From NCBI GenBank assembly GCA_037446635.1, contig JBBIIG010000004.1:100859-164858 (forward strand): a DNA stretch of 64,000 bases, given 5' to 3'. Under the pieces are notes generated by a model. It saw only the letters and a program-made list of their open reading frames with translations, was not told the origin of the DNA and did no database searches. The translations under genes and the position numbers were made by a program. Below are positions 7,100 through 48,775 of this stretch, piece after piece (position 1 is the first letter of the stretch; each line of letters begins with the position of its first letter). The stretch is from a bacterium. GTDB taxonomy: Bacteria; Zhuqueibacterota; Zhuqueibacteria; Oceanimicrobiales; Oceanimicrobiaceae.

Positions 7100-8125
7100 C
7101 TAACTCGCGTAAACCCCTTCCGCTGCCTCCTCCGGCGCCGGCAGCGGACTCTCCTCCGCCCACTTCTGTCCCTCATCGATTTCCAATTTTACGCGTTCCT
7201 GAATTTTCTCCAATTCACTTTTTGATGCGATTTTATTTTCGAACAAATACTTTTCGTGCATCATGATCGGATCGCGTTTCTCCCAATATTCGAAAAGCGC
7301 CTTCGGGACGTAAAACGCGTCGTCGTGCTCGGCGTGTCCTTTCATGCGAAACGTCTTGGCTTCGATGAGCGTCGGTCCCTCGCCTTTGCGGGCCCGCTCA
7401 ACCGCGCGCTTCGTGACTTCATAAACTGCAATCACGTCATTGCCATCTACGATTTCGCCGGGGATACCATAAGCTTTGGCGCGGTCGGCAAAATTTTCCA
7501 GCAGCGTCTGTTTGCTCACCGGAGTCGAGTAAGCGTAGCCATTGTTTTCCAAAATCACCACCAGCGGCAGCTTCATCACTGCGGCAAAATTAAGTCCCTC
7601 GTGGAAATCGCCGACGCTGGAGCCGCCGTCGCCAATCCACGTGAGCGCCACATTGGGCTGCTTCTTCATTTTGAACGCCAGCGCCGCGCCAGCGCAAACT
7701 GGAATCAGCGCGCCCAACATGCTGATAGGCGCAATGATGCCGCGTTTCAAATCGCCGAAATGGGACGTACCATCTTTGCCCTGCGTGGGACTGGTTTTGC
7801 GTCCGAGATAATTGGCGAAAAATTCTCCGGGTGTGACGCCCCGCACCAACACCGCGCCCGCGTTGCGGATCATCGGGCCGATGACGTCGCCCTTTTCCAG
7901 CGCGTACGCCGAGCCCACCGATGTGGCTTCCTGTCCGCGACTCACGTACGCGCCGCCCAAAATTTTGCCGGTGCGGTACATGATGGAAAGGCGGTCGTCA
8001 AAAGCGCGATTAAGAACCATGAAATAATATAGTTCCAAAAGCTGCTCTTTTGACAGCGAATGCTTTTGGGCTTTGGAATTTTTGGAGATAGATTTTCTTT
8101 TCGCGGCGGGCTTCGCCTTAGGCAT
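7100..8125 (-). CDS. 2-oxoacid dehydrogenase E1 component alpha subunit (TPP-dependent)
   Basis: 341 aa; the TPP-binding region (GDGGSSVGDFHEGLNFAAV...NNGYAYSTP) is typical of E1 alpha. Confidence 0.85.
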   Translation of the reverse strand: MPKAKPAAKRKSISKNSKAQKHSLSKEQLLELYYFMVLNRAFDDRLSIMYRTGKILGGAYVSRGQEATSVGSAYALEKGDVIGPMIRNAGAVLVRGVTPGEFFANYLGRKTSPTQGKDGTSHFGDLKRGIIAPISMLGALIPVCAGAALAFKMKKQPNVALTWIGDGGSSVGDFHEGLNFAAVMKLPLVVILENNGYAYSTPVSKQTLLENFADRAKAYGIPGEIVDGNDVIAVYEVTKRAVERARKGEGPTLIEAKTFRMKGHAEHDDAFYVPKALFEYWEKRDPIMMHEKYLFENKIASKSELEKIQERVKLEIDEGQKWAEESPLPAPEEAAEGVYAS

Positions 8126-9497
8126 GTTTATCCGCTTTCAAAATTTTCATGAAATCGTTGATGGTTTTGAAGGATTCCAGATTCCAGATGGCTTCGCGAA
8201 TTTGCTTTTGCTTTTTTTCCGAAAGAAGATTGGAAGACAGGCCGGCGAATTTATTTTGCAGGTCTTCGTCCGTCATGGGCTCACGAGGATCGCCTTTGGG
8301 ATAATCGAGCTGCGCCGAGTGCGTCTGTCCGTTCTTCAATTTGATGGTGACTTTCGACTGCTGCTTGGCAGGGAAATTTTTCTCGAACTCGGCGCTGGCC
8401 TCGCCCTTGATTTTGTTGATGACGCCCATGATGCGCGGGTCTTTGATGCGTTCCTCGTTGAATTGATCGGTGGTTATTTTGCGATCGACAATCGCCGCAG
8501 CGATGCAGTACGGCAAGCTGTGATCGGCAGTCTCGCGGGAGGTCGGTTTGTATTTCGCCGGGTCGAATAAAATATCCACGGCCCGCGCAATGGTGGTGAC
8601 GGTCACCGTGTCGATGTCCTCGGGTTTAATATCATGCTCGGTGACGACTTTGATGGTCGCCGAAATATGTGTGTGCGTCAGCGCTTCGGTCGGGAATGCT
8701 TTCATCGAGCAATCGAGTATTTTAAAATGATCACCGAGTCCACCAACCAATTTTTCGCGATCCCAATCCGGCCCGAACACTTGCATGAAGCCCTCTTTGC
8801 CCTCGAAGATTTCTTCGGTGCCGGAGTAGCCTTCTTTTGCCATCAGCGCGGCCATCACCCCGCTCTGCGCTGCCAGCGGATCGACGGTGTTTTTCATCAT
8901 CGTGAGCTTGCCGGCGGTCACGGCCCCGGGCGTGAAATTGTGGCACCCCGAAATGCCGATGGCGTTCACCATCTGGTCTTCATTCAAATCCAGCAAATAT
9001 CCCGCGACGATCGGTGACACAAACTGGGTTAACGAGGCGTGGTGCCACTTGCGCTCGCGAATTCCGGGAACAGCAAATTCACATAACCGGCACTCGAATT
9101 CATACGCCAGCACAATCGCCGTGATCACATCTTTGGCGCTCTTCGCTTCTCGCTCACCAACCGCCAGCGCCGCCGGAATGATGTCGCTGGGGTGACTCGG
9201 ATCCTGTTTCCAATAAATGTCGTTGAAATCCAACGCGCGGATCATCAGACTGTTGAGGAACGTCGCGTTGTACGCCGGCATCTTTTCCCCACTGGCGATG
9301 GCCGTGGCCTCGGCTTTCCCGCCCATGTCTGCGTAGATTTTGCGAACGATTTTCACATCGTGAGTATTGAAGCCTCCGTAAGCACAGCCGAGGGAGTCGT
9401 ACAAAAACCGTCTGACTTCGGTGACGACGGGCTCGGGTAGATCGTCATACTTGAGGTTGAGAGAAAATTTGGCGATTTGTCGGGAAAGGGAGGTCAT
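8118..9497 (-). CDS. MmgE/PrpD family protein (2-methylcitrate dehydratase-like)
   Basis: 459 aa; the N-terminal LKYDDLPEPVVTEVRRFLYDSLGCAYGG is characteristic of PrpD. Confidence 0.8.
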   Translation of the reverse strand: MTSLSRQIAKFSLNLKYDDLPEPVVTEVRRFLYDSLGCAYGGFNTHDVKIVRKIYADMGGKAEATAIASGEKMPAYNATFLNSLMIRALDFNDIYWKQDPSHPSDIIPAALAVGEREAKSAKDVITAIVLAYEFECRLCEFAVPGIRERKWHHASLTQFVSPIVAGYLLDLNEDQMVNAIGISGCHNFTPGAVTAGKLTMMKNTVDPLAAQSGVMAALMAKEGYSGTEEIFEGKEGFMQVFGPDWDREKLVGGLGDHFKILDCSMKAFPTEALTHTHISATIKVVTEHDIKPEDIDTVTVTTIARAVDILFDPAKYKPTSRETADHSLPYCIAAAIVDRKITTDQFNEERIKDPRIMGVINKIKGEASAEFEKNFPAKQQSKVTIKLKNGQTHSAQLDYPKGDPREPMTDEDLQNKFAGLSSNLLSEKKQKQIREAIWNLESFKTINDFMKILKADKHA

Positions 9498-9624: not shown

Positions 9625-10743
9625 TCATAGCTTCCGCGCCACCTCCTCCGCCACTTCCAGCGTGCTGGAATTCCCGCCCATGTCGTACGTTCGCACTTTG
9701 CCTTCTTTGATGACGGTTGCAATGGCTTTCTCCAACCGCTCGGCCATTGAATTTTCTTTTAGCCAATCGAGCATGAGCTTAACCGTCAGCAGCATGGCCA
9801 TGGGATTCACTTTGTACTGTCCCGCGTATTTTGGCGCGGAGCCGTGCGTCGGCTCGAACACCGCGTAATTGTCGCCGATGTTGCCGCTGGACGCAAATCC
9901 CAGTCCACCAACGAGCTGCGCACAGAGGTCGGAGATGATGTCGCCGAACATGTTGGAGGCCACCAGCACGCCGTAGTCCTGCGGGTTCTTGATCAGCCAC
10001 ATGCACATGGCGTCGATGTTCGTTTCCCACAGCTCGATACCGGGATAGTCCTTCGCCACTTTGCGCGCCTCGCGAATGATGAGGCCGCTGGTCTCGCGCA
10101 GCACGTTTGGCTTCTCCACTATCGTCACCGATTTATAGCCGTACTTTTTGGCGTACTCAAATCCCTGCCGCACGATGTTGGCCGAGGCTTTTTTGGTGTT
10201 GAGCCGAACACTGATGGCAATTTCATCGAGAGGCGTTTGCGCGAAACGCTGCATGGCCTTTGAGTGCTTGGCCAAAACATCGCGCACCTCCGCCGGCAGC
10301 GGATGAAACTCGATGCCGCTGTACAAGTCCTCTGTGTTTTCGCGGAAGACCACCAGATCGATGTCATCGCGATAGTTGAGTGGATTGCCGGGATACGCTT
10401 TGCACGGCCGCAGGTTAGTGTGCAGGTTGAACATCTGCCGCAGCTTCACAATCGGACTGGAATAGACGAAGCCTTTGTCCGCCAACGCAGGATCGAGCTC
10501 TTTGGCGGCTTCCTCTTTCGGCTTCGAAGTGATGGCCCCGAACAAGCAGACATCGGTGCTTTTGAGAAGCTGCACCGTGCGGTCGGGCAGCGGATTGCCT
10601 TCGTGCTTCCAAAACTCCCAGCCGATGTCGCCGGGGAGATATTCGGCGTCAAGTTTCAGCGCATCGAGGACGATGCGGGCGGCTTCCATGACATCGTTGC
10701 CAATGCCGTCGCCGGGAAGCCATGCGATTTTGTACTTGGGCAT
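9625..10743 (-). CDS. Isocitrate/isopropylmalate dehydrogenase family protein (NAD(P)-dependent beta-hydroxyacid oxidative decarboxylase)
   Basis: 372 aa; WLPGDGIGNDV ... NLRP ... GSAPKYAGQ motifs of the IDH/IMDH family. Confidence 0.8.
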   Translation of the reverse strand: MPKYKIAWLPGDGIGNDVMEAARIVLDALKLDAEYLPGDIGWEFWKHEGNPLPDRTVQLLKSTDVCLFGAITSKPKEEAAKELDPALADKGFVYSSPIVKLRQMFNLHTNLRPCKAYPGNPLNYRDDIDLVVFRENTEDLYSGIEFHPLPAEVRDVLAKHSKAMQRFAQTPLDEIAISVRLNTKKASANIVRQGFEYAKKYGYKSVTIVEKPNVLRETSGLIIREARKVAKDYPGIELWETNIDAMCMWLIKNPQDYGVLVASNMFGDIISDLCAQLVGGLGFASSGNIGDNYAVFEPTHGSAPKYAGQYKVNPMAMLLTVKLMLDWLKENSMAERLEKAIATVIKEGKVRTYDMGGNSSTLEVAEEVARKL

Positions 10744-10759: not shown

Positions 10760-10990
10760 TTAGATTTGTTTCAACAGATCGTTAAATTCATCAATTGTCA
10801 AATCCGCGTCGCGAATAATTCCGCGCTGCGTCCCTTTGGGAAGATCTTGATTGCCATGACACGGAACCACCACAATTCTTTGGCCATTGTCCAATATTGC
10901 ATGACTACCTTTCCATCTCTTGACCGCGAACCCAACTTTCTTCAAAACCTTGACAACGTCGTTCCCCTTCGCGGGAATCATCTTACTCAT
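10760..10990 (-). CDS. hicA: HicA family toxin (mRNA interferase)
   Basis: 76 aa YcfA/HicA-like (VLKKVGFAVKRWKGSHAIL); immediately downstream of hicB with a 4-nt overlap. Confidence 0.7.
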   Translation of the reverse strand: MSKMIPAKGNDVVKVLKKVGFAVKRWKGSHAILDNGQRIVVVPCHGNQDLPKGTQRGIIRDADLTIDEFNDLLKQI

Positions 10991-11190
10991 ATTTCGATTT
11001 CGATGGATTCGCCAACTTTTCGGTAGTCATTGATACGAAGATTCAAAACCTCCAAATAGCCTGCAATCGCTTCTTTGATGTTATTGATGGCTTCCTCTTT
11101 GTTGTTGCCCCATGAATGACATCCCGGCAACGCGGGCACGTGCGCGGAAACACGTCCATCATCTTCCTTTTCTAAAATGATTTCGTATTT
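10987..11190 (-). CDS. hicB: HicB family antitoxin
   Basis: MKYEIILEKEDDGRVSAHVPALPGCHSWGNNKEEAINNIKEAI is the UPF0150/HicB fold motif. The longer raw ORF carries an N-terminal extension that is probably spurious. Confidence 0.65.
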   Translation of the reverse strand, partial: KYEIILEKEDDGRVSAHVPALPGCHSWGNNKEEAINNIKEAIAGYLEVLNLRINDYRKVGESIEIEI

Positions 11191-11334
11191 CATCGATTTT
11201 ACTCCTGACTTAACTGACTTTCGTCGATTATCGCTTTTGATAATTTGGTAAGTAATCACGCCGAGGCCAATCATAAAAATCACAAAAGCGGTCACCGGAA
11301 ACCAAACCATTTTATAGTGCCTCCAATGGAGAGA

Positions 11335-11571
11335 TCATGATTGTACCAAGTCCGTTGGACATAAGCATGGCTTACATAACTTTCTTTGCCTTCTTTCTCC
11401 TTTTAGTTTTGGAAAAACTGAAACCAATGCACGAAGGGCGGAATTTACGCTCTCTGAGTCAGGAAAGAATTCGACTAAATCAGGTTCAATCACGACAATG
11501 TTGGTGCCCTCCGCATATTTCTTCGCATATTTATTGGGGCGAGCTTTTGAAAAATCATATTCTTTTCTCAT
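11335..11571 (-). CDS. brnA: BrnA-like antitoxin (DUF4415)
   Basis: MRKEYDFSKARPNKYAKKY...VVIEPDLVEFFPDSESVNSALRAL matches the BrnA/DUF4415 pattern; located immediately downstream of brnT. Confidence 0.6.
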   Translation of the reverse strand: MRKEYDFSKARPNKYAKKYAEGTNIVVIEPDLVEFFPDSESVNSALRALVSVFPKLKGERRQRKLCKPCLCPTDLVQS

Positions 11572-11893: not shown

Positions 11894-12430
11894 CTATTTC
11901 ACCAAATCAAAATCAATAAAATCCGCGTGGTGCAAAATAATCGCTTCGGGCGAGCGTTTGAAGTGATCGCCTTCTTTGGAGTGCACTGCCACGATGTGCA
12001 TCACCTCTTCCGGGATGTTGTATTTGAAGCAGAGTCCCACGCCGCTGAACGGATGTCGCAGGTACTGGCCGTGCTTGCTCTTGACGATCTTCCCATCTTT
12101 TTTGTCATACTCGTATAACTTGCCAACATCCGCCAGCAGCGCGCCAGCCACAAGGTGATCGCGGTTCACCGGCGTTTTGCGAGCGCCATAGGCCTCGGAC
12201 AAAACTTGGTCGCAGGCCACGCACATCTGACACACCACGCGCACGTGTTCGAGAAACGTGATCTTCACATTTTCCGCCAAAAGCGTGAACGGAATTTTCG
12301 CCAGTTCTTCCGCAGTCCAATTGCGATACTCCATCGCTTCTTTCCAAACTGCGATCGTGTTTTCGCGCAGTTGCGAATCCTGAATCAAATTGAACTCCGG
12401 AATCATCTTGGTCAATTCATCTTTGGTCAT
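11894..12430 (-). CDS. HD domain-containing protein (metal-dependent phosphohydrolase-like)
   Basis: 178 aa with His/Asp-rich HD-type motifs (HVRVVCQMCVACD..., HSKEGDHF, ILHHADFIDFD). Confidence 0.55.
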   Translation of the reverse strand: MTKDELTKMIPEFNLIQDSQLRENTIAVWKEAMEYRNWTAEELAKIPFTLLAENVKITFLEHVRVVCQMCVACDQVLSEAYGARKTPVNRDHLVAGALLADVGKLYEYDKKDGKIVKSKHGQYLRHPFSGVGLCFKYNIPEEVMHIVAVHSKEGDHFKRSPEAIILHHADFIDFDLVK

Positions 12431-12473
12431 ATCATTCCTCTGTCATTTTGTAATGAAGTCTTAGTTGGTCAGA

Positions 12474-12565
12474 ACGTGGAGTAATGGATTGATAGATTAG
12501 TGGATCAGTAATTTCAGTACTCCAGAACTCCATTAATCCATTGATCCATTAATCCACTTTATCCA
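12474..12565. repeat. Family A composite hairpin repeat (8-bp units with a TGGA core, then units with a TCCA core)
   Basis: Left arm gtggagta atggattg atagatta gtggatca ... ; right arm agtactcc agaactcc attaatcc attgatcc attaatcc. Confidence 0.55.
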
Positions 12566-12600: not shown

Positions 12601-13425
12601 TTACAAGCTCCGGTCCGGCGGCCCATCATATTCTTGATTAGTGGGATCGATGACTCGCATCGGTTTGTAGCGTGTCTGTTCTTCAAACACGTGCGCCACC
12701 AGTCCGGGCGTGCGGGCAATCATAAAAAATGCATTGGCGAGTTTAGGCGAAAATTCCAGTTGACACAAAATAGCCGCGATGGCGCCGTCAACATTGATGG
12801 GCAGCGTTTTACCGGAATCTTGTTTCAAAGCTGTTTCAATGGCTTTCGCAATGGCGATGAACGTATCGCCGATTGCCCATTCTTCGCACAGTTGGAACAA
12901 CTTCGTCGTGCGCGGATCCTTTGTGTGCAGCCGATGTCCGAATCCCGAAATGCGACGTCCGGTTTCACGATACTCCTGCACGATCGTTTCCGCGGCTTTA
13001 TCAACCGAAAGCTGCTTCGACTTGCGGATTTCCTCGGTCTGCAGCAGCACCCCCATGCAGTCCTCGATGGCGCCGCCGTGAAAGCGCGAGATGGCGAGAA
13101 TACCGCCGGCCACCGCGGCATTGAGCGGCGCGCCCGTCGAGGCTACCGTGATCGCCGCCAACGCCGAGGGCGGCGTGGCGCCGTGATCGATGGACGACAC
13201 CAAAATCGCCTCGATTAGTTTGCCGACGTTTTCGGACGGCAGTTCTCCCTTCAGCGCCAAATATACCGCCTGCCCAAAAGAAATTTTTCCCATCAATTCG
13301 TCAAGCCGATACCCGCGCAGCCGCACTTCATTCGGCTTGACTTTCGAGATGGCGGTTTTCCAGCGTGTTTCTTCCATAGTCCTACCCTCTGCTTGGTTTT
13401 GTGACAGAGGTGTTGTCGGGCGCAA
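12601..13425 (-). CDS. Citrate synthase-family short protein, citryl-CoA lyase-like
   Basis: 274 aa; carries only the citrate-synthase C-terminal catalytic region (SGFGHRLHTKDPR, ...ARTPGLVAH...) and lacks the N-terminal CS domain. Confidence 0.65.
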   Translation of the reverse strand: MRPTTPLSQNQAEGRTMEETRWKTAISKVKPNEVRLRGYRLDELMGKISFGQAVYLALKGELPSENVGKLIEAILVSSIDHGATPPSALAAITVASTGAPLNAAVAGGILAISRFHGGAIEDCMGVLLQTEEIRKSKQLSVDKAAETIVQEYRETGRRISGFGHRLHTKDPRTTKLFQLCEEWAIGDTFIAIAKAIETALKQDSGKTLPINVDGAIAAILCQLEFSPKLANAFFMIARTPGLVAHVFEEQTRYKPMRVIDPTNQEYDGPPDRSL

Positions 13426-13426
13426 A

Positions 13427-13512
13427 GGTATAGGGTATAAGGTATAAGGTATAAGTGAAGGCGCGTTAACTACCTTATTCCCTTATACCCTTATACCCTA
13501 TACCCCCTTACC
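13427..13512. repeat. Composite hairpin of ggtataa units followed by ttatacc units
   Basis: aaggtatagggtataaggtataaggtataag-tgaaggcgcgttaacta-ccttattcccttatacccttataccctatacc; spans the stop of the upstream SucD-like gene and the start of the downstream lyase-like gene. Confidence 0.55.
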
Positions 13513-14403
13513 CGTCAGCACCTCCCCAGTCACTTTCGGAATATCATCGAACCGCTCAACGATATGCGCCCCCACTTCCCGCAGCCGCTTCACTTTACTT
13601 TCATGCGTGCCGCGATTGCCCTCGACGATGGCGCCGGCGTGCGAAAAACGCGTGCCCGACTTCGCCGCGGCACCGCCAATATAAGCAATCAGCGGTTTTG
13701 TGAAAAGTCCTTTTTCGATGAGATCGGCCACCCGTTCTTCCTGCGAGCCGCCGATCTCTCCGAACATGACAACAGCCTTCGTGTCGGGATCATTTTCGAA
13801 TAATTGCGCCACGTCCGGGTGCGGCGTGCCCACTATCACGTCGCCGCCCACGTGCACGATGGTGCTGAGTCCGATGCCGCTTTTGCTGAGATAATATGCA
13901 ATCGACGAGGTGATGCCGCCGCTGCGCGAGGTGACGCCGACGTTGCCCTTTTTGAACCACGCTTTCGCCGAGGCTGCGCGACCGCCCATCATTCCGAGCA
14001 CGCCTTTATCGACGCTGAGCAGTCCGAGGGTGTTGGGACCGACATAGCGCGCGCCGGCCTTTTTGGCAGCGTGCTCGATTTCGAGGACGTCGTAAATGGG
14101 CACGCGGTCCGGCACCAGCACCAGCAGTTTGATGCCGGCATCGATGGCTTCGAGGGCAGCGTTTTTCACCAGCGGCGCGGGAATGAAAATCACGGAGGCG
14201 TCAATCTGCCCGCACTTCTCCACGGCTTCTTTCACCGTGTCATAAACCGGCACACCCAACACATCCTGTCCACCGCGGCCCGGCGTGACGCCCGCCACGA
14301 CTTTCGTACCGTACTCCATCATCAGTTTGGTGCGCGCCATGCCTTCGCGGCCGGTGATGCCCTGCACGACGACGCGCGTGGTTTCGTTGACTAAGATGGA
14401 CAT
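13498..14403 (-). CDS. Succinyl-CoA synthetase alpha-like CoA-binding subunit (citryl-CoA synthetase small subunit-like)
   Basis: 301 aa; CoA-binding Rossmann N-terminus (VVVQGITGREG) and the phosphohistidine loop SGTRFSHAGAIVEG. Confidence 0.75.
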   Translation of the reverse strand: MSILVNETTRVVVQGITGREGMARTKLMMEYGTKVVAGVTPGRGGQDVLGVPVYDTVKEAVEKCGQIDASVIFIPAPLVKNAALEAIDAGIKLLVLVPDRVPIYDVLEIEHAAKKAGARYVGPNTLGLLSVDKGVLGMMGGRAASAKAWFKKGNVGVTSRSGGITSSIAYYLSKSGIGLSTIVHVGGDVIVGTPHPDVAQLFENDPDTKAVVMFGEIGGSQEERVADLIEKGLFTKPLIAYIGGAAAKSGTRFSHAGAIVEGNRGTHESKVKRLREVGAHIVERFDDIPKVTGEVLTGKGV

Positions 14404-14469
14404 AACCTAAATAACTCACAAGTTTTGAAATCCGACAACTTCGATGTTAATGAAGCTCTGTTGTTTAGA

Positions 14470-14553
14470 ATGTGGAGTAATGGAGTTTTGGATTAATGGA
14501 TCAATGACGAAAAAACTGCATTAATCCATTGATCCATCAATCCACTAATCCAT
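14470..14553. repeat. Family A composite hairpin repeat
   Basis: gtggagtaatggagttttggattaatggatcaatg ... cattaatccattgatccatcaatccactaatccat. Confidence 0.55.
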
Positions 14554-14583
14554 TTGCCTCAGTGTCCTTTAAGTCGTCCTGAG

Positions 14584-14991
14584 TTATCTCCGGTACGGTA
14601 ACAACTTTAATCCACTAATAAAATCATAATCGCGCCGATTCTTTGAAACAAAGGATAGATTCAAAGTCATTGCGGTTGCGGCAATCAAAGCGTCAGGTAT
14701 TGCTAATCCGTGACTCAATCGGTACTTGCGCAACAAATTGATCGCTTCGTCCGAGATTGACTCGGTAATTTTGAGGACCTGAAATCTTTTCAGAAAACGA
14801 TTTGTGTGTTGCAGCTCAGTTTTGTTTCGACAACCAACAATCAACTCCATTTCCGTTACAACACTGGCAGCCAGTTTTGATTCTTTCTCCGCTTCGTTCA
14901 AATAGTCAACAGCATCTTTGATTTTTCTTGCCGCATCAATCAGGATATCAGTATCAATAACAGTCAATTCATTCATCAACTGCGCTCCCAT
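14584..14991 (-). CDS. vapC: PIN domain toxin (VapC-like)
   Basis: 135 aa; the IDTDILID start and conserved acidic residues indicate a PIN domain. Confidence 0.7.
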   Translation of the reverse strand: MGAQLMNELTVIDTDILIDAARKIKDAVDYLNEAEKESKLAASVVTEMELIVGCRNKTELQHTNRFLKRFQVLKITESISDEAINLLRKYRLSHGLAIPDALIAATAMTLNLSFVSKNRRDYDFISGLKLLPYRR

Positions 14992-15215
14992 TCACGGCGC
15001 CGTAAGTTGCGCACCCATTCGGTGCTGTCCTTCATGTCCTCCCTATCCCGCCACATGCCGATGAATGGCTCGTCGCGTAATCGTGTCGGCTTGGTCTTCT
15101 TACTTGCTCTTTCTATTTGGTAGCGACTCTTCAAAAAAGCAACAAAATCCCTGACCTGCTTTTGCGCGTCAGGCGGTAAGGAAGCTATGTCTTCTATTAT
15201 TCTTGCTACTTCCAT
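14976..15215 (-). CDS. vapB: VapB-like antitoxin (DUF2281-like)
   Basis: The internal start MEVARIIEDIASLPPDAQKQVRDFVAFLKSRY gives an ~80 aa protein; the longer raw ORF overlaps the upstream ATP-grasp gene. Confidence 0.5.
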   Translation of the reverse strand: MEVARIIEDIASLPPDAQKQVRDFVAFLKSRYQIERASKKTKPTRLRDEPFIGMWRDREDMKDSTEWVRNLRRREWERS

Positions 15216-15216
15216 T

Positions 15217-16818
15217 TCAACCTCTTCGTTTAAAACTTCGTGTGCTTCGTGCCCTTCGTGGTTTTGCTCTTTTCTTAGTGGAACGCGTCCTTTCATTTCC
15301 ATCCAGCCCCGCAATCGGCAAATCGATATACGCCCCTTTGTTGCCGTGAAAGATGCATTCAATCTCGCACGCCAAACATTCGATGCACTTGCCGGCTTTT
15401 GCTTCTTCGCGGGTGATGGCCAGCACCGGCACATCTTTTTCCAATTTCAGAATTTCCGGGATGCAGCTCGACACGCAAATCTTGCTTTCGCATTTCAGAC
15501 AGGCGGCGTGATCGTAAGTGATCGAGCCGGTCAGCGTGGCGAATTTGTAAGGCTTCTTCGCTTTGGGTTTTTGAAATTTCTTTTTCGTCCGAGTTGGTTT
15601 ATATGAATCCACCAACGCGCGCAGCCGCTGGGCGCAGAACTCCGCGGAGTCATCTTTTTTGTAACCCTCGACCGGCGCGGGCAAATCTTTGGTGTAATTA
15701 GTGAGAATCTCAACGGCTTTGTCCTCGGCGTTGCCGCCCAAACGAATCACCGCCGGAATAGAAAGATTCTCTTCCCGGAACGCCTTTACCAGTCCGCGCG
15801 CGGAATGAAATTGTTCCTGACTGGCCACGCCCGATCCCGAGCCAAAATAGGCATCGATATTCTTTTGCGAAAGAATGATCTTCGCGGCGCGATAGACTTT
15901 CGACGCCGGGGGATTGCCGCTGGTGTCGGTGAAATTCGCGATTTTGAATCCCTGCCGCGTCACCGCGTCCATCGACATCATCGAGCCGCCGCCGCCCGCG
16001 CCATGAAATCCGATGTAACCCTCGCCCTTTTTGAAATTCTGCTCCATCTGGATGAAATAGAACGTGCCGCGATAATCGTTCTTCTCAACGTTGTAGGCGA
16101 TTTTGTCCAACTCCGTCGGCGGACGATCCAGCTCGCGGGCGATTTCGATGCCCAACTCCGGATGGCGAAACACCGCGTAATCATCCACGGTGATGCGGCA
16201 GTCCGCGGCAACAGGATCGCCATTTTCAACTATCACCAGCGGATTGATTTCCGCGGAACGCGCCTCGTACGTGCGCGCCACGTTCCACAGTTTCACCAGC
16301 ACGTCGGCCAACTTCGCTTGTGTCGCGCCAGTGATGCCAGTTTGGCGAATGAGATTGCGCGCCTGAAATTCTTTGAAGCCCTCGACGATATCGATGCCGG
16401 CTTTCGCGACTTTGTCCGGATGCGCGGCGGCAATTTCCTCGATGCCGGTGCCGCCAATCGCGCTGAAAATGATCACCGGCTGGCGCTCGCGATCATCGAT
16501 GATGATGCCCGTGTAAAATTCCTGTTTGATGCCGAGCTTCTCCTCCACCAGCACCTGATCCACCACAAAATTTTTGACCGCGAGTCCGAAAAGTTTTTTT
16601 GAAAGGCGCTTGGCTTCGGCTGGCGTGCTAGCAAATTGAATCCCGCCGATGCCGGCGCGGCCGGTGGTCCAAACCTGCGCTTTCAGTACGACAGGCTTGC
16701 CAATTTTCGTCGCCGCTTTAAAGACTTCTTCCGGAGTTTTGCACACACTACCGGCGGGCGTCGGTATTTTGGCGTTTCGTAGAAGTTCTTTGCCTTGATA
16801 TTCGTGGAGTCGGGCCAT
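15217..16818 (-). CDS. Succinyl-CoA synthetase beta-like ATP-grasp subunit with a C-terminal 2x[4Fe-4S] ferredoxin-like domain (citryl-CoA synthetase large subunit-like)
   Basis: 533 aa; SucC-like N-terminus MARLHEYQGKELL; the C-terminal ~80 aa carries CLKCESKICVSSC and CIECLACEIEC cysteine clusters. Confidence 0.7.
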   Translation of the reverse strand: MARLHEYQGKELLRNAKIPTPAGSVCKTPEEVFKAATKIGKPVVLKAQVWTTGRAGIGGIQFASTPAEAKRLSKKLFGLAVKNFVVDQVLVEEKLGIKQEFYTGIIIDDRERQPVIIFSAIGGTGIEEIAAAHPDKVAKAGIDIVEGFKEFQARNLIRQTGITGATQAKLADVLVKLWNVARTYEARSAEINPLVIVENGDPVAADCRITVDDYAVFRHPELGIEIARELDRPPTELDKIAYNVEKNDYRGTFYFIQMEQNFKKGEGYIGFHGAGGGGSMMSMDAVTRQGFKIANFTDTSGNPPASKVYRAAKIILSQKNIDAYFGSGSGVASQEQFHSARGLVKAFREENLSIPAVIRLGGNAEDKAVEILTNYTKDLPAPVEGYKKDDSAEFCAQRLRALVDSYKPTRTKKKFQKPKAKKPYKFATLTGSITYDHAACLKCESKICVSSCIPEILKLEKDVPVLAITREEAKAGKCIECLACEIECIFHGNKGAYIDLPIAGLDGNERTRSTKKRAKPRRARSTRSFKRRG

Positions 16819-18197: not shown

Positions 18198-18539
18198 CTA
18201 TGCAGGACGATTTATTCGCAAAAGCTTACGCTTGAGGGTCTTTTGCGTTTTTATTGCGTCATGAATTCTTTTAGCCAGCGCCAGAAAATTTAGATCGAAT
18301 GAACAAACAATAATGCCTTCGTGATCCGTCATCGATCCATGCAATTTAACAAAATGCTTTCGATTAATAGTCAACAAAGCTCTTTGATCTTTGGTGGCCT
18401 CACTGAGAACTTCTTCATCAGGCAACGCTTGTTGGGCTTTTCCGGTCTCTTGAATAGTGATTACATCATGACCCAATCTGCGAAGTTCCTCAACCGCGGG
18501 ATAAGGAAAATTCTCGTTGGCATATAGGCGCGCCATCAT
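18198..18539 (-). CDS. DUF5615 family PIN-like protein (putative toxin partner of DUF433)
   Basis: 113 aa; MMARLYANENFPYPAVEELRRLGHDV... matches the DUF5615 pattern; overlaps the DUF433 gene by 4 nt. Confidence 0.55.
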   Translation of the reverse strand: MMARLYANENFPYPAVEELRRLGHDVITIQETGKAQQALPDEEVLSEATKDQRALLTINRKHFVKLHGSMTDHEGIIVCSFDLNFLALAKRIHDAIKTQKTLKRKLLRINRPA

Positions 18540-18889
18540 GCCTCCTCGTTCTCCCGAATTTGCTGCTCGATCTCATCGCGATGGGCCCGCACATAAGCCC
18601 ATGCGTTGACCAAATCTTCCGCACGAAGCGTCGGATAACTTCTCAGCAATTCTGCCTCGGTTGCGCCAAGTCGCCTCGCTTGCTCAAGCAGCCAGACCGG
18701 AATACGAGTTCGCACAATTCGCGGCTCGCCACCACAAACACCGGGCGTGCTCTCGATACCGGGAAACGAATCGCCTAAATCTTGCACAACCCATTGCAGC
18801 AATTCTGCTTTTTCAGCACGCGTCAGAGTTGACAGCAGTTCTTTTGCTTTTTCAGTGTTGGTCATTTTTAGCCCTGAATGAATGAACAT
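18536..18889 (-). CDS. DUF433 domain-containing protein (putative antitoxin)
   Basis: 117 aa; PGVCGGEPRIVRTRIPVWLL is the DUF433 core. Confidence 0.6.
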   Translation of the reverse strand: MFIHSGLKMTNTEKAKELLSTLTRAEKAELLQWVVQDLGDSFPGIESTPGVCGGEPRIVRTRIPVWLLEQARRLGATEAELLRSYPTLRAEDLVNAWAYVRAHRDEIEQQIRENEEA

Positions 18890-19304: not shown

Positions 19305-19350
19305 CTCCACTACTCCAGAACTCCAACACTCCATTAATCCACTAATCCAT
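19305..19350. repeat. Family A repeat, right-arm half copy
   Basis: ctccactactccagaactccaacactccattaatccactaatccatc immediately downstream of lpdA. Confidence 0.45.
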
Positions 19351-20750
19351 CAAATATGAATCGCCTCTCCCATCGCATCCGCAGCCGCTTCCATCACCGC
19401 TTCCGTGAGCGTCGGGTGCGCGTGGATGGTATGGAAAATTTCCTTCGGCGTGGATTCCAAAGTTTTCGCTATTCCCAGCTCAGCAATCATATCCGTGGCC
19501 TCGCTGCCGATGATATGAGCGCCTAACAGCTCGCCGTACTTGGCGTCGAAAATCAATTTCACCATGCCTTCGGTTTCGCCCACCGCAATCGACTTTCCCA
19601 AAACCCGAAACGGAAACTTGCCAACTTTGATCTCGCGTCCGCCCTCTTTCGCCTTCGCCTCGGTCATACCGATGCTCGCAACTTGCGGCTGGCAATAGGT
19701 GCAGCTCGGAAAATTCGAGTAGTCCACCGGCTTCGGCGATTTTCCCGCGATATTTTCGGCGCAGCAAATTCCCTCTGCGGAGGCCACGTGCGCCAGCAGC
19801 GGCGGGCCGATGACGTCGCCAATTGCCCAAATGCCCTCGACGTTCGTCTGATATTTCTCGTTCACTTTGATGAAGCTCTTTTCGATCTGCACGCCAAGTT
19901 CCTCCAAACCCAAACCGCTGGTGAAGCCACCGAATCCCACCGCCATCAGCGCCATGTCGCCAGTGAGCTCCTGACTGCTGCCTTTCTTGTCGCCGACTTT
20001 CACCGTCACCCCTTTGGCCGAAGTTTTGACGCTCTCGACTTTGGTTTCAGTGAGAATTTCGATGCCGCTTTTTTTGAACGACTTTTGCAGAATGTCCACA
20101 ATTTCGGAATCCTCAAACGGCAGAATTTGCGGCAGCATTTCGACGATGGTGCACTTCACGCCAAACGCGTTGTAGAAATAAGCGAACTCCACGCCAATCG
20201 GTCCGCCGCCGATGATGATCAGCGACTTGGGCAGTTCCTCCAGCACCAAAGCCTCGCGACTGGAAATCACTTTCTTTTTATCAATCTCAACTCCCGGCAA
20301 TGAGCGCGTGAAGCCCCCAGTCGCGACGATGATGTGTTTCGTAGTAACCGCTTCAGCGGTTCCATCGCTTTTGGAAATCTCGACAGTGTTTTTTTTCGCG
20401 ATACGTCCCGTCCCCGTGAAATGCTCGATCTTGTTTTTGCGCATCAAGAACTCGACGCCTTTGCTGAGCCGGTCCGCCGCCGCGCGGCTGCGTTTGACGA
20501 TTTTCTTCGGATCGTATCCGACTTTTTCCACACTCAAGCCGTACTCGTCCGCGTGCTGAAACATGCGATACACCTCGGCGCTGCGCAGCAACGCCTTACT
20601 GGGAATGCAGCCCCAGTTCAAACACAAGCCGCCGAGCCGCTCCTTTTCAACGATGGCGCATCTGAGTCCCAACTGCGAGGCGCGGATGGCCGCCACGTAT
20701 CCGCCGGGTCCGCCGCCGATGACCGTAACATCGAATTCCTTATTTGCCAT
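19350..20750 (-). CDS. lpdA: Dihydrolipoyl dehydrogenase (E3)
   Basis: 466 aa; FAD-binding VIGGGPGGY, the redox disulfide GGLCLNWGCIPSK, and a C-terminal HAHPTLTE. Confidence 0.9.
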   Translation of the reverse strand: MANKEFDVTVIGGGPGGYVAAIRASQLGLRCAIVEKERLGGLCLNWGCIPSKALLRSAEVYRMFQHADEYGLSVEKVGYDPKKIVKRSRAAADRLSKGVEFLMRKNKIEHFTGTGRIAKKNTVEISKSDGTAEAVTTKHIIVATGGFTRSLPGVEIDKKKVISSREALVLEELPKSLIIIGGGPIGVEFAYFYNAFGVKCTIVEMLPQILPFEDSEIVDILQKSFKKSGIEILTETKVESVKTSAKGVTVKVGDKKGSSQELTGDMALMAVGFGGFTSGLGLEELGVQIEKSFIKVNEKYQTNVEGIWAIGDVIGPPLLAHVASAEGICCAENIAGKSPKPVDYSNFPSCTYCQPQVASIGMTEAKAKEGGREIKVGKFPFRVLGKSIAVGETEGMVKLIFDAKYGELLGAHIIGSEATDMIAELGIAKTLESTPKEIFHTIHAHPTLTEAVMEAAADAMGEAIHI

Positions 20751-21717
20751 TTAAAATGTGCTCCATGATTAATTTGCCGTGCTGGCGTGAGTTTTCGATA
20801 AACACTTTGCTGCCATCGCCGCCTGCCGTGATGACGCCTGCAATATAAATTCCCGCTACGTTAGTTTCAAGGGATTTCGGGTTGTGCGCTGGTGTGGCAT
20901 CGTTGGTGAATTGTATGCCCATCTTCTTCAAAAAGTCAACGTTGGGACGATAGCCGGTCATCGCGAAAACGAAGTCGTTTTCGATCTCCCACACTTCGCC
21001 AGCCGCATTTTTCACCACGATGCGATCCTCTTTGATTTGCAAAACTTCGGTATGGAAATGCGCGCGAATTTTCCCTTCTTTGATACGATTCTCGATATCC
21101 GGCAAAATCCAATATTTTACCGATTTGCCAAAACTCTCGCCGCGATGGACGACGGTGACTTTCGCGCCGTGATGATAGAGATCGAGCGCGGCCTCCACTG
21201 CCGAATTTTTGCCGCCAATGACCGCCACGTTTTTCTGAAAGTAGGGATGGCCTTCGGTGTAGTAGTGGCTAACCTTTGGAAGATTTTCGCCGGGGATGTT
21301 TATAAAATTGGGCGTGTCGTACTGCCCGGTGGCAACGATGATGTTGCGCGTGCGATAATTTTTCTTGCGATCAGTTTCAATGCGAAAGTCCCCCTTTTCC
21401 CCGGAGACCGCTTGCACGGTTTCATAAAGATGCAGGCGAATCTGCCAGTGCTCGGCGACGCGGCGATAGTAGTTCAGCGCATCCAATCGTTTTGGTTTCG
21501 GAGCTGAAAGCACAAACGGCACGCCACCAATTTCAAGTAAATCTGCAGTGGAGAAGAATGTGAGATCGGTGGGAAAATGGAAGATGGAGTTGACGAGGCA
21601 GCCCTTTTCGATGACGAGATAATTCAGATTTTGCTGTTTGGCCTCGATGGCACAGGCGAGACCGGCGGGTCCGGCGCCGATGATGATGACATCGAACAAC
21701 TCATGATGGTTGGTCAC
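20740..21717 (-). CDS. YpdA-like FAD-dependent pyridine nucleotide-disulfide oxidoreductase (thioredoxin reductase-like)
   Basis: 325 aa; IIIGAGPAGLACA dinucleotide-binding motif and a second Rossmann motif VIGGKNSAVEAA. Confidence 0.55.
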   Translation of the reverse strand: MTNHHELFDVIIIGAGPAGLACAIEAKQQNLNYLVIEKGCLVNSIFHFPTDLTFFSTADLLEIGGVPFVLSAPKPKRLDALNYYRRVAEHWQIRLHLYETVQAVSGEKGDFRIETDRKKNYRTRNIIVATGQYDTPNFINIPGENLPKVSHYYTEGHPYFQKNVAVIGGKNSAVEAALDLYHHGAKVTVVHRGESFGKSVKYWILPDIENRIKEGKIRAHFHTEVLQIKEDRIVVKNAAGEVWEIENDFVFAMTGYRPNVDFLKKMGIQFTNDATPAHNPKSLETNVAGIYIAGVITAGGDGSKVFIENSRQHGKLIMEHILNGK

Positions 21718-21756: not shown

Positions 21757-21969
21757 TTATAAATCCTCGGGTTTCAAACCAGTGTGTTTGGCGATTCTTG
21801 CCAACATCTTTGGGCCAATCTCTTCACGGTCATGAAATGCAAACACAAAATCTGGCCAACCTGTTCTTTCGAGAATCTTGTGCGAACCCGATTGACGTTT
21901 CACGCGCCAACCAATGTGAACAAGCGCTGAAAATACCCGGCGCGCTTTGGTAGCTCGCCATTGGCTCAT
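21757..21969 (-). CDS. hicA: HicA family toxin (second copy)
   Basis: 70 aa; ALVHIGWRVKRQSGSHKIL. Confidence 0.6.
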   Translation of the reverse strand: MSQWRATKARRVFSALVHIGWRVKRQSGSHKILERTGWPDFVFAFHDREEIGPKMLARIAKHTGLKPEDL

Positions 21970-22172
21970 GTGCTCGTCGCAAAATACTCGCCGACTTCTG
22001 GCACCTCTTCGCCGTGCTCGATGCGATCGGCCAGTACACGCAGCGCCAGAGCCTTCACTTTTGCAACGGCTTCATCACGCGTTTGACCGTAGGCCAAAAC
22101 ACCGGGAAGGTCAGGAATTTCTGAGAGCCAGCGTCCGTCTTCTTCTTTTTCGATTTCAATCGTCCATTTCAT
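21966..22172 (-). CDS. hicB: HicB family antitoxin (second copy)
   Basis: 68 aa; MKWTIEIEKEEDGRWLSEIPDLPGVLAYGQTRDEAVAKVKALA. Confidence 0.6.
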   Translation of the reverse strand: MKWTIEIEKEEDGRWLSEIPDLPGVLAYGQTRDEAVAKVKALALRVLADRIEHGEEVPEVGEYFATST

Positions 22173-22191: not shown

Positions 22192-23466
22192 TTAATTGAG
22201 CACTTCGCGCGGATCGGAAATGACGCCGCGCACAGCCGTGGCCGCGGCCACCGCTGGACTCACCAAATACACCTGCGCCGATGTATGCCCATTGCGTCCC
22301 ACGAAATTGCGGTTGGTGGTGAACACCCCGACCTCCTTCTCCGCCATCACCCCCATGTGAGCGCCGAAGCAAGCGCCGCAAGTTGGCGGGCCTATTGAAG
22401 CGCCGGCTTCGTGGAAAATTTCCGCGAGGCCTTCGGTCAGCATTTGATGATAAATCTGCTCCGTTGCCGGCACCACCACCATTCGCAGGCGATTGTTGAC
22501 TTTCTTCCCTTTCAACACTTGCGCCGCGATACGCAAATCTTCGATTTTGCCGTTGGTGCACGAGCCGATGTAAACTTGATCGACTGGCACTTTTTCGACT
22601 TCCGAAACCGACATCACATTGCCCGGCAAATGCGGACGCGCCACCATCGGCTGCAAGTTGCTGACATCGTAACTTAGTTCCTGACAATACACCGCGTCAG
22701 CATCCGGCGCAAAGAACAGCCACTCGTCCTCCGGCTTGACGGCGCGACCGCGCAGATATTCTCGCGTCACTTCGTCGGCTTTGATAACGCCGTTCTTGCC
22801 GCCGCACTCGATGGTCATGTTGGCAAACACCAGGCGATCGTACATCGGCATGTTCTCGATGGTCTCGCCGCCAAACTCGATGGCTTTATAGGTGGCGCCC
22901 TCGATTCCCAAATCGCGGCACACCAGCAGCATCATGTCTTTGGCAGAAACCCATTCCGGCAACTTGCCCGTGAAAGTAACTTTGATGGACTCCGGCACGC
23001 GGAACCACGTCTCTCCCAAAACCCAGGCCGCAGCCATATCAGTGCTGCCCACTCCGCTGGCGAAACAGCCGAGTGCGCCGTAGGTGGTGCTGTGGGAATC
23101 GGCGCCGAGCACGACGTCACCGGGACAAATCAACCCCTGTTCCGGCAAGAGTTGGTGGGAAATGCCGGAGCGCCCCACTTCGTAGTAATATTTGATGTTC
23201 TGCTCGCGGGCAAAATTGCGCATGATTTTGGAGAACTCCGCGGATTTGATGTCTTTGGCCGGCGTGAGATGGTCGTGTACCAGCGGGACTTTTTCCGGAT
23301 CAAACACCCGCTCGCCACCCATCTCTTTGAAGACTTTGATGGTCAGCGGCGAGGAGATGTCCGTCGCCATCGCGATATCGATTTTGGCAAAAATCAAATC
23401 GCCCGGCTTCACTTCTTTCAGCCCGGCGCGATTGGCTAAGATTTTTTCAGTGAGTGTCATGCCCAT
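22192..23466 (-). CDS. leuC: 3-isopropylmalate dehydratase/homoaconitase large subunit-like (aconitase family)
   Basis: 424 aa; MGMTLTEKIL start and the aconitase-family Cys ligands (GSCTNG, CGAC). No small subunit is adjacent. Confidence 0.75.
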   Translation of the reverse strand: MGMTLTEKILANRAGLKEVKPGDLIFAKIDIAMATDISSPLTIKVFKEMGGERVFDPEKVPLVHDHLTPAKDIKSAEFSKIMRNFAREQNIKYYYEVGRSGISHQLLPEQGLICPGDVVLGADSHSTTYGALGCFASGVGSTDMAAAWVLGETWFRVPESIKVTFTGKLPEWVSAKDMMLLVCRDLGIEGATYKAIEFGGETIENMPMYDRLVFANMTIECGGKNGVIKADEVTREYLRGRAVKPEDEWLFFAPDADAVYCQELSYDVSNLQPMVARPHLPGNVMSVSEVEKVPVDQVYIGSCTNGKIEDLRIAAQVLKGKKVNNRLRMVVVPATEQIYHQMLTEGLAEIFHEAGASIGPPTCGACFGAHMGVMAEKEVGVFTTNRNFVGRNGHTSAQVYLVSPAVAAATAVRGVISDPREVLN

Positions 23467-33992: not shown

Positions 33993-34027
33993 CCTGAATC
34001 GTAACGAAATCTCAATTGCCGCGACGC

Positions 34028-34172
34028 GGATTAATAGATCAATGGATTAATGAAGTTTGGCGCAGAGCGACAGGCGTGGAGCGTAGAGCTTCAGATACCG
34101 ATCCGCTTCGCGGAAAAGAGCATGGTGCGCTTCATCCACCACTCCATCAATCCATTACTCCACAAGTGATAA
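34028..34172. repeat. Family A composite hairpin repeat with an extended GC-rich centre
   Basis: ggattaatagatcaatggattaatgaag ... (centre) ... cttcatccaccactccatcaatccattactccac. Confidence 0.5.
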
Positions 34173-34434
34173 AAAGGGGGTGATAACTAAAGAACAAGTT
34201 GGCTGTTGCAGTTTATCGTTGGAAAAAGAAAACAAAAAACCCCGCCCTGCCTGTCCGCTTGGCGGATCCGCTTCGCATGCCTGTGCAGGCAGGCGGACGC
34301 AGGCAAATGGAAATCGTTGACTGGGTCAAAGTTAAACGATTTCCGCAAGACGGGGCAAGAAAACAACCGCAATGTAAATCAGACCGCGAAATTTGTCAAA
34401 CAAATTTTTCAGCGGATTTCAAGGAGGTACGCAA

Positions 34435-37400: not shown

Positions 37401-37472
37401 GGAATTTACATCTTCCAAATTAGCGCCGGCGACGCCTTTAAAGTCTCGAAACGAATGCTGCTTTTGAAGTAA
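34435..37472 (+). CDS. Giant secreted protein: signal peptide, Big_2-like Ig domains, ~9 carboxypeptidase-regulatory-like domain repeats, T9SS type A C-terminal sorting domain
   Basis: The start MFKLKTTLIVLLGL follows an aaggagg RBS. It has repeated ...ITG.V......PIAGA.V......TD..G.Y.I..L..G.Y...A...G...EF(Y/F)D... modules. The C-terminus reads NYPNPFNPQTTIKYQL...IFNVLGQQVRTL...GIYIFQI...KRMLLLK. Confidence 0.7.
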
Positions 37473-48585: not shown

Positions 48586-48639
48586 TTTTATTTCTCTCCA
48601 TAAGTTTTGAATATAGTCAATAGTCAGATAGAGGCAAAT

Positions 48640-48770: not shown

Positions 48771-48775
48771 CGCCT

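Follow-up and report, generated by a model that had tools for sequence, protein, structure and literature searches.

The stretch of DNA analysed here, 64,000 nucleotides long and referred to as the window, stems from a bacterium of the family Oceanimicrobiaceae (Zhuqueibacterota; GenBank assembly GCA_037446635.1, contig JBBIIG010000004.1, positions 100,859 to 164,858 of the forward strand) and carries on its minus strand the genes for a putative acid-coenzyme A (CoA) ligase and a citryl-CoA lyase (CCL). In agreement with an earlier note on this DNA, which was made from the letters alone, open reading frames (ORFs) and Pfam matches reveal a 533-aa SucC-like, a 301-aa SucD-like and a short citrate-synthase-like protein at this site. 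The first is the large (beta-like) subunit of the ligase (15217..16818), whose ORF matches Pfam ATP-grasp_2 and Citrate_bind. The small (alpha-like) subunit (13498..14403) matches CoA_binding and Ligase_CoA and contains the phosphohistidine loop that the note had also read (S254-H255-A-G-A), along with E216 in a GEIGG motif. The CCL gene (12601..13377) was identified by NCBIfam models and by alignment to structure 6HXP. It encodes 258 aa when read from the ATG at 13377, which is the more likely start, and 274 aa when read from an alternative TTG at 13425.

The lyase is matched by the Pfam Citrate_synt profile at positions 162-355 of 357 only, i.e. by the catalytic C-terminal half of citrate synthase, which is how the earlier note had described the protein. 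It passes the cut-offs of two NCBIfam citryl-CoA lyase models, NF004869 (275 bits, cut-off 212) and NF004866 (265.5 bits, cut-off 245). Its top match in the PDB is the CCL of Hydrogenobacter thermophilus (6HXP, chain 6hxp_A), to which residues 3-258 align with residues 2-252 at ~55% identity and 205 bits, versus at most 75 bits for citrate synthases and ~62 bits for the CCL module of ATP-citrate lyase (ACL). The catalytic residues H116 (FHGGA), H164 (GFGHR) and D213 (NVDG; numbering of the 274-aa form) are kept, and in the alignment to 6HXP the same holds for all of the oxaloacetate/citrate-binding motifs DH, DPR and F..IAR. Because the family cut-offs are passed, the alignment to 6HXP runs from end to end and the catalytic and ligand-binding motifs are intact, the short citrate-synthase-like protein is, judged by its sequence, a bona fide CCL orthologue with an intact active site. 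Its probable reaction is the cleavage of citryl-CoA to acetyl-CoA and oxaloacetate.

The large subunit of the ligase is built, from N- to C-terminus, of an ATP-grasp half, a substrate domain, a linker, a ferredoxin-like module and a tail derived from an insertion. The nucleotide-binding ATP-grasp half (aa 1-235; 16114..16818) is of the type found in succinyl-CoA synthetase (SCS) and is matched by ATP-grasp_2 at residues 3-196 (183 bits). Together with E190 of the beta EINPL motif, which is invariant in a set of 22 homologues from several phyla, H255 and the alpha-subunit E216 complete an intact ligase catalytic machinery. The C-terminal acid-substrate domain (aa 250-400; 15619..16071) was delimited by alignment to SCS chains and to CcsA (6hxq_B), the large subunit of citryl-CoA synthetase (CCS) from H. 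thermophilus. It displays the motifs GAGGGGS (273-279), DTSGNPPAS (298-306), GSGSGVASQEQ (326-336) and IRLGGN (358-363). No Pfam Ligase_CoA match was obtained on the large subunit, whereas Citrate_bind passes its cut-off (28.5 bits, cut-off 26.8). Both subunits miss the SCS equivalog models, beta with 263.8 bits (cut-off 370) and alpha with 303.9 bits (336) and with 307.4 bits on TIGR01019 (353).

Taken by itself, the substrate domain scores nearly alike against CcsA (52 bits) and against Thermus SCS (53 bits). In a comparison with CcsA that covers residues 232-345 of the latter, the motifs RPPTE, D(Y/H)RG, GGGGS and ANFTDxxGNPPA are common to the large subunit, CcsA and ACL and are not those of SCS: GGGGS stands where SCS has NGAGLAM, and ANFTDxxGNPPA where SCS has ANFLDxGGGA. 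A search with this 114-aa fragment of H. thermophilus CcsA retrieved nine short fragments and no full-length CcsA. According to the 22 homologues and to a motif table of 121 representatives, invariant GAGGGGS and SGVASQEQ stand in place of NGAGLAM and GG(I/V)xR, the motifs of the succinate site in SCS. The SGSGVASQEQ loop, invariant in the family, has the length seen in ACL and CCS and is two residues longer than the SCS loop.

An exhaustive search across 1.84 billion representative proteins yielded 679 matches at E <= 1e-30, the best 150 of which were used. From the 111 of these 150 that are full-length, a neighbour-joining tree was computed without bootstrap; together with the motif table, it divides the sequences into three groups: the SCS class, the ACL/CCS class with the nearest relatives of CcsA, and a third clade, designated W. 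The signature of clade W is D-T-S-G-N-P-P-A-S-K combined with an x-S-Q-x loop, and the window protein lies within it. Averaged over the substrate core, this protein is 57% identical to members of W, compared with 37% for the ACL/CCS class and 29% for the SCS class. Phylogeny, to which the earlier note had looked for support of a CCS-type ligase, thus agrees with it in part, since the large subunit falls outside the SCS class, but outside the ACL/CCS class as well. As far as these comparisons tell, the ligase pair is neither a canonical SCS nor an Aquificae-type CCS nor an ACL; it belongs to a third clade that combines an SCS-like ATP-grasp half with CCS/ACL-like motifs in the substrate domain. 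Two further identities were ruled out, namely that of an ADP-forming acetyl-CoA synthetase (27-80 bits only) and that of a malate-CoA ligase (178.5 bits on the MtkA model versus a cut-off of 604).

An eight-cysteine domain at the C-terminus of the ATP-grasp subunit, as proposed in the earlier note, is present, and both of its motifs were located. This ferredoxin-like module (aa 420-506; 15301..15561) comprises CLKCESKICVSSC at aa 440-452 (C440-x2-C443-x4-C448-x3-C452, then P) and CIECLACEIEC at aa 478-488 (C478-x2-C481-x2-C484-x3-C488), the latter of canonical CxxCxxCxxxC spacing. All eight cysteines are invariant in the 22 homologues. The AlphaFold2 (AF2) model of the large subunit has a mean predicted local distance difference test (pLDDT) score of 87, and the module reaches 83-95 within this full-length model and 66 when modelled in isolation. 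When the module was aligned by hhalign with an approximate sequence of a clostridial ferredoxin, only the second cysteine motif was aligned. The module probably binds iron-sulphur (Fe-S) clusters, likely two of them.

The fusion of ligase and module had been regarded as unique, a view that did not survive the searches. More than 100 protein clusters (65-92% identity, ~508-520 aa, 95% query coverage) carry it, from KSB1, Marinimicrobia, Calditrichota, Gemmatimonadota, Bacteroidota, Acidobacteriota and others, and it is encoded in at least 574 species genomes of the GTDB. Members of clade W without the fused module occur in Bathyarchaeia, Archaeoglobaceae, Geothermarchaeales, Anaerolineales and Deltaproteobacteria. 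In all six unfused loci examined, a separate ORF of 90-127 aa is located between the large- and small-subunit genes, examples being 2134-2412 in locus L083 and 9719-9991 in locus L084; these free-standing versions are 35-52% identical to the window module and keep the cysteines. Among the matches listed, the cysteine-rich extension was present in 8 of 32 representatives of W and in none of ~90 sequences of the SCS class, the ACL/CCS class or no class. Given that the extension is confined to W and that free-standing versions exist, the module is therefore a clade-defining component, which is fused to the ligase in this subfamily.

Gene linkage was counted in 80 related loci, with denominators that vary by feature. 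In 70 of 73 loci the large-subunit gene is followed by the small-subunit gene within 3 kb, and in 57 of 61 by a CCL gene within 5 kb. The CCL gene is followed by a gene for an HD-domain protein in 37 of 53 loci (in the window 11894..12430, minus strand, 178 aa, Pfam HD, a conserved operon partner), and further downstream by an isocitrate/homoisocitrate-type beta-decarboxylating dehydrogenase in 26 of 40 (9625..10743, minus strand, a conserved operon member). A PrpD-like gene, represented in the window by a frequent operon member of the MmgE/PrpD family (8118..9497, minus strand), is present in 15 of 40 loci, or in 16 loci by de novo clustering of flanking ORFs. The same clustering retrieved homoaconitase-type subunits, the large one in 36 loci and the small one in 22. 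The conserved operon order is ligase, CCL, HD protein, in some cases homoaconitase-like proteins, isocitrate-type dehydrogenase and in some cases the PrpD-like protein.

The best PDB matches of the dehydrogenase are an NAD-dependent isocitrate dehydrogenase (IDH; 228 bits) and the homoisocitrate dehydrogenase of Thermus (223 bits). The MmgE/PrpD-family protein matches cis-aconitate decarboxylase/IRG1 with 109 bits, IDS epimerase with ~105 and 2-methylcitrate dehydratase PrpD with 45. For the HD protein no sequence relative was found in the PDB. In other phyla one or two HacA/HacB-like pairs are located downstream of the HD gene, and a LeuC-type aconitase-family large subunit is encoded in the window at 22192-23466 (603 bits on PRK00402), next to a hicAB pair and with no adjoining small-subunit gene. 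In the window and its close relatives this LeuC-type aconitase, a flavoprotein, Lpd and LipB are encoded upstream, and E1 alpha/beta of a 2-oxoacid dehydrogenase and nuo genes downstream. In the Anaerolineaceae locus L054, the operon is flanked by genes for the alpha and beta subunits of a 2-oxoacid:ferredoxin oxidoreductase (OFOR; 8051-9229 and 19790-20836); the lipoamide-dependent E1 alpha/beta, E3 and LipB occupy their place in the window lineage.

Elsewhere in clade W the ligase is accompanied by other lyases. An HpcH/CitE-like lyase follows it in L082, L083, L084, L086, L087 and L088, and in L085 an HMGL-like lyase is combined with the ligase and a TctABC tricarboxylate transporter. The one unfused locus with TctABC also encodes an IclR regulator, and in the Archaeoglobaceae locus L083 a homologue of the PrpD-like protein also comes after the HpcH lyase. 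As judged by these gene neighbourhoods, the ligase, made up of the beta subunit, the Fe-S module and the alpha subunit, is almost always associated with a lyase that acts on a C-C bond of a CoA ester, and the partner would indicate the substrate, here through CCL. The HD protein appears to travel with the ligase-lyase pair, because its gene follows both the CCL and the HpcH-lyase variants, the latter in L084 (11984-12571).

We consider it moderately likely that the three genes would constitute a two-step, ATP-linked system, which interconverts citrate plus CoA with acetyl-CoA plus oxaloacetate by way of free citryl-CoA. The first step would be carried out by an ADP-forming acid-CoA ligase, the small subunit of which would bind CoA and bear the phosphohistidine H255, while the large subunit would supply the ATP-grasp site and the acid-binding domain. 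In the second step, CCL would interconvert citryl-CoA with acetyl-CoA and oxaloacetate. A CCS-like function, with citrate as the presumed substrate, is assigned to the ligase because a CCL needs a partner handling citryl-CoA and the ligase is the only candidate: its genes adjoin that of CCL in nearly all genomes, in an order colinear with aclB-aclA, its substrate domain is CCS/ACL-like, and its clade is wired to lyases. The make-up of the operon would link acetyl-CoA and oxaloacetate with 2-oxoglutarate. The pathway could operate in either direction, as citrate cleavage or as ATP-conserving citrate synthesis. The ACL of Desulfobacter serves ATP-conserving citrate synthesis. As the Gibbs energy of ATP-dependent citrate cleavage is only ~-8 kJ/mol (PMC13147460), both directions would be thermodynamically accessible.

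In Caldithrix abyssi, the genes for SCS (Caby_3467/8) and citrate synthase (Caby_0022), as well as those for aconitase and a monomeric IDH, are located far from the IDH(COG0473)/pyruvate dehydrogenase (PDH) E2-E3 cluster Caby_3783-3800 (PMC5317091 supplement), which suggests that the operon coexists with a separate canonical set of tricarboxylic acid (TCA) cycle enzymes. Citrate synthase working alongside the ligase-CCL pair would risk an ATP-wasting futile cycle, and because of this potential cycle a regulatory (redox- or O2-sensing) or an assembly role is proposed for the Fe-S module.

The nearest characterized counterpart would be the CcsAB (6HXQ)/Ccl (6HXP) system of H. thermophilus, in which ligase and lyase are likewise separate proteins. 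Both ligases consist of an ATP-grasp large subunit and a CoA-binding small subunit with a phosphohistidine loop, the substrate domain agrees with CcsA in its GGGGS and GNPPA motifs and in the length of the loop, and the lyase of the window is a clear orthologue of Ccl of the same length. In contrast to H. thermophilus, the lyase gene of the window adjoins the ligase genes, the context is heterotrophic rather than that of the reductive TCA (rTCA) cycle, and the large subunit carries a ferredoxin-like module, which CcsA lacks. The window ligase also belongs to a different clade, is closer to SCS chains by score, does not keep the N/T citrate ligands of CcsA and misses the ~50-aa extension of CcsB. 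Hence, of the CCS-CCL system put forward in the earlier note, the CCL orthologue, the missed SCS cut-offs, the CCS/ACL-type motifs and the colinearity with aclB-aclA have stood. The ligase, on the other hand, is not an orthologue of CcsAB (233 bits to SCS versus 118 to CcsA, separate clade, altered ligands, no CcsB extension).

With bacterial AclBA (6HXJ) the locus shares the order of large subunit, small subunit and lyase, and with ACL in general the 'AGGGxS' and 'SGxP'-type motifs of the substrate domain. Unlike in AclBA, however, small subunit and lyase are unfused and lack the stalk, scores reach only 77 and 140 bits, R379 and N346/T348 are not kept, and ACL has no Fe-S module. SucCD of the Thermus/archaeal type (3UFX, 2YV1, 2YV2) is similar in its two subunits, overall fold and catalytic His and Glu and shows the highest overall sequence and structure similarity. 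It differs in that the equivalog cut-offs are missed, that the C-terminal domain of the large subunit matches Citrate_bind instead of Ligase_CoA, and that the succinate-site motifs are replaced here, an extra Fe-S module is present and linkage to a lyase gene is obligatory. MtkAB and Mcl of serine-cycle methylotrophs resemble the arrangement insofar as a ligase of the SCS family is encoded beside a lyase cleaving a C-C bond of a CoA ester, and the HpcH/CitE-like lyases of the sister W subfamilies are of the same fold family as Mcl. However, the lyase of the window has the citrate synthase fold, and the score on the MtkA model is far below its cut-off. We know of no Fe-S module for Mtk.

Several observations weigh against a citrate-specific ligase, most of which would equally suit a different assignment, in which the ligase is simply the divergent SCS of its host, supplemented with an Fe-S module. 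In this case succinyl-CoA from the neighbouring 2-oxoacid dehydrogenase or oxidoreductase would be converted to succinate and ATP, and the CCL-like protein would merely be co-regulated, for instance as a minimal citrate synthase. The full-length large subunit has SCS as its top PDB match (3ufx_B, 233 bits, 36% identity), versus 118 bits for CcsA (6hxq_B) and 77 for AclB. The small subunit scores 276-291 bits with SCS alpha chains, versus 190 with CcsB (6hxq_A) and 140 with AclA, and does not possess the C-terminal extension of CcsB (~50 aa). In Foldseek searches with the AF2 model, too, Thermus SCS beta leads (36% identity) over CcsA (28%), and source databases label the large subunit as SCS beta. 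Residues N346 and T348 of human ACLY (structure 3MWD), as well as R379, bind citrate; by alignment only, the positions of N346, T348 and R379 are occupied here by A/S, Q/E and L, whereas N346 and T348 are kept as N and T in the GxxANxT loop of H. thermophilus CcsA. The enzymes encoded nearby (E1 alpha/beta, E3 and LipB in the window, subunits of OFOR in Anaerolineae) would moreover produce acyl-CoAs that an SCS-like enzyme can use, and the order of branching among the three groups is not fixed by a tree of the best 150 matches. As to the module, Fer4_9 and Fer4_8 score 17 bits (Pfam cut-off 27), an NCBIfam OorD match is likewise sub-threshold, and in a Foldseek search with the isolated module ferredoxins rank top without reaching significance (E >= 0.2, TM ~0.5). 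We nevertheless consider the SCS assignment fairly unlikely, as it is opposed by the scores of both subunits below the NCBIfam SCS cut-offs, by the exchange of the succinate-site motifs for different, invariant residues and by the position of clade W outside the SCS class. In addition, the whole clade is linked with lyases that act on CoA esters and have three unrelated folds, which fits a ligase providing lyase substrates rather than an SCS. In C. abyssi, a separate SCS seems to be encoded at another place in the genome, and a CCL requires a source or sink of citryl-CoA.

The identity of the acid could also be questioned, in that the pair might act on another hydroxy-di- or tricarboxylate, such as 2-methylcitrate, malate, citramalate, homocitrate or an itaconate-derived acid, within a catabolic or chain-elongation pathway. 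The invariant SGVASQEQ loop, which fits neither the ligand residues of SCS nor those of ACL/CCS, would be compatible with this. So would the pairing of sister subfamilies with HpcH/CitE-like and HMGL-like lyases, once with a TctABC transporter, the equal scores of the operon dehydrogenase and hydro-lyase on homoisocitrate/homoaconitase and isocitrate models, and the resemblance of the PrpD-like protein to cis-aconitate decarboxylase. This is countered by the lyase, which is ~55% identical from end to end to the biochemically defined CCL of H. thermophilus, is placed above cut-off in NCBIfam citryl-CoA lyase subfamilies and keeps the DH, HGGA, GHR...DPR, NVD and F...R residues for oxaloacetate and citrate binding, so that we regard a substrate other than citrate as unlikely.

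For the module itself, a structural function in docking or assembly, or one as a redox- or O2-sensing switch, appears most likely, and not that of a catalytic electron carrier, because ligation and cleavage are not redox reactions. It is quite improbable that the module is a working electron carrier tethered to the ligase, which would serve a neighbouring OFOR or fumarate-reductase-like flavoproteins and in this sense bring about the direct redox coupling considered in the earlier note. Its cysteine spacing resembles that of 2x[4Fe-4S] ferredoxins and its best weak matches are OorD and ferredoxins; in L054 the operon lies between genes for OFOR alpha and beta, and genes of the FAD_binding_2/Succ_DH_flav_C type adjoin the split versions in L083 and L084. 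Yet ligase and lyase both catalyse non-redox steps, and the module accompanies the ligase whatever redox genes are nearby, the OFOR being replaced in the window by a lipoamide-dependent dehydrogenase. Fusion to the beta subunit, or a position next to its gene, is furthermore typical of a subunit and not of a soluble carrier. More speculatively, the module could be the obligate third component of an unrecognised class of ADP-forming di/tricarboxylate-CoA ligases in Bacteria and Archaea, in which it would gate the ligase-lyase pair in response to redox state or O2 or tether the ligase to the lyase. The CCL-linked subfamily would then provide regulated, reversible ATP-coupled synthesis and cleavage of citrate in widespread heterotrophs (Calditrichota, KSB1, Marinimicrobia, Anaerolineae, Acidobacteriota and others), as an alternative upper branch of the TCA cycle beside or instead of citrate synthase. 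This is a tentative proposal, which we consider possible rather than likely.

In reviews and surveys, ATP-dependent cleavage of citrate by CCS and CCL is regarded as a rare indicator of the rTCA cycle that is limited to Aquificaceae and Leptospirillum (PMC13147460). A preprint lists CCS homologues in Caldithrix, Acidobacteria, Deltaproteobacteria and DPANN and mentions no Fe-S domain (10.1101/2022.10.25.513756). A description of the Fe-S fusion, of the split three-gene form or of lyase swapping was not found in the literature, in which subscription journals were thinly covered. Genes of this ligase clade are routinely annotated as 'succinyl-CoA synthetase' or 'ATP-grasp protein' and derive mostly from uncultured heterotrophs. 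The present analysis ties a bona fide CCL closely to a distinct ligase clade, a pairing that occurs in at least 574 species genomes. If the preferred two-step reading is correct, metabolic reconstructions of abundant sediment and ocean lineages would mis-assign a central step, and marker-gene surveys of the rTCA cycle would have to include ligases of a third type. For the SCS/ACL superfamily, a non-redox enzyme with an Fe-S module would moreover introduce a new principle of regulation or structure. The occurrence of the module in split and fused form, like the swapping of lyases (CCL, CitE-like, HMGL-like), bears on the evolutionary assembly of ACL and citrate synthase.

The rTCA setting suggested in the earlier note was not borne out: the neighbouring genes of the window encode 2-oxoacid dehydrogenase E1 alpha/beta, E3, LipB and complex I, and no rTCA marker gene is present within the 64 kb. 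The rest of the window encodes surface proteins with tails for the type IX secretion system (T9SS), glutamine synthetase, peptidases and complex I, because of which we take the host for a heterotroph of the FCB group. Two very large secreted proteins (34206-37472 and 59103-63992) with CarboxypepD_reg, cadherin-like and CBM96 repeats and a T9SS Por_Secre_tail are consistent with polymer degradation.

Between the two ligase genes, a vapBC pair is inserted, as the earlier note had recognised and PIN and DUF2281 matches confirm. The vapB-like gene (14976..15215, minus strand; 79 aa, DUF2281) starts with an ATG 1 nt past the ligase stop codon, and its own stop codon overlaps by 1 nt with the ATG of vapC (14584..14976, minus strand; PIN-domain toxin of 130 aa, ORF extendable to 14991). 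The Pfam scores are 54.5 bits for the PIN domain (cut-off 23.6) and 26.7 bits for DUF2281 (cut-off 26.5), and the NCBIfam VapB and VapC models remain below their cut-offs for this pair. Since a 92% relative (L081) has vapBC at the identical place, with a VapC homologue of 130 aa, the insertion is stable in the lineage. A 79% relative (L001) is without vapBC. Its large- and small-subunit matches are 23 nt apart, the stop codon overlaps the ATG (GTGATG), and the large subunit ends with ...GLDEYLREHA.

The large subunit of the window departs from this conserved end after ...GLD and continues with 27 basic, disordered residues (aa 507-533; 15220..15300, minus strand; pLDDT ~34) up to the stop codon 1 nt before vapB. 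This tail is missing from the other homologues of the 22-member set except for the 92% relative P0001. As the frame reads past the conserved ...GLD toward vapB, the tail is a by-product of the vapBC insertion; that it is part of the Fe-S domain was ruled out, given its read-through origin and low pLDDT.

A strong hairpin of tandem units between the SucD-like and lyase-like genes, also reported in the earlier note, was recovered at 13427..13505 (-51.7 kcal/mol, z = -6.7). Its arms consist of tandem 7-8-nt units (GGTATAA/GGGTATAA), and the 5' arm overlaps the final codons of the small-subunit gene. This hairpin is unique within the window, and relatives have a spacer of 20-45 nt without a hairpin at the junction of small-subunit and CCL genes. 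A hairpin with octamer units (TGGAnTAA) is situated at 14473..14554 within the 180 nt that separate vapC from the small-subunit gene, and a second one at 12473..12560 between the CCL and HD genes (-42.7 kcal/mol, z = -3.9). Taken from sequence comparison with the relatives, vapBC and the hairpins appear to have been inserted recently, and specifically in this lineage, into a pair of genes whose translation was once coupled.

Both octamer hairpins belong to a dispersed intergenic family with tandem units TGGAnTAA or TGGAGTAT, which is also represented at 19330-19349, 34027-34162 and 48632-48789. A 20-mer pattern derived from it has 11 matches in the window versus 0.01 expected, and arms of up to 69 nt are found beside glnA, with no match to an Rfam family. 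The hairpin at 13427-13505 has the same architecture with a different unit. An Rfam scan of the region detected no family, only chance matches of the hairpins to miRNA-precursor models, and a scan of the region for promoters and terminators gave site numbers no higher than in shuffled sequence. Toxin-antitoxin modules occupy further gaps of the operon: in addition to vapBC (14584-15215), they are located at 21757-22172, 18198-18889, 10760-11310 and possibly 11335-11571, comprising hicAB twice and one DUF433/DUF5615-type pair. Most of them are shared, at the same positions, with the 92% relative L081, and the ligase genes of the unrelated locus L084 are likewise interrupted by a PIN module.

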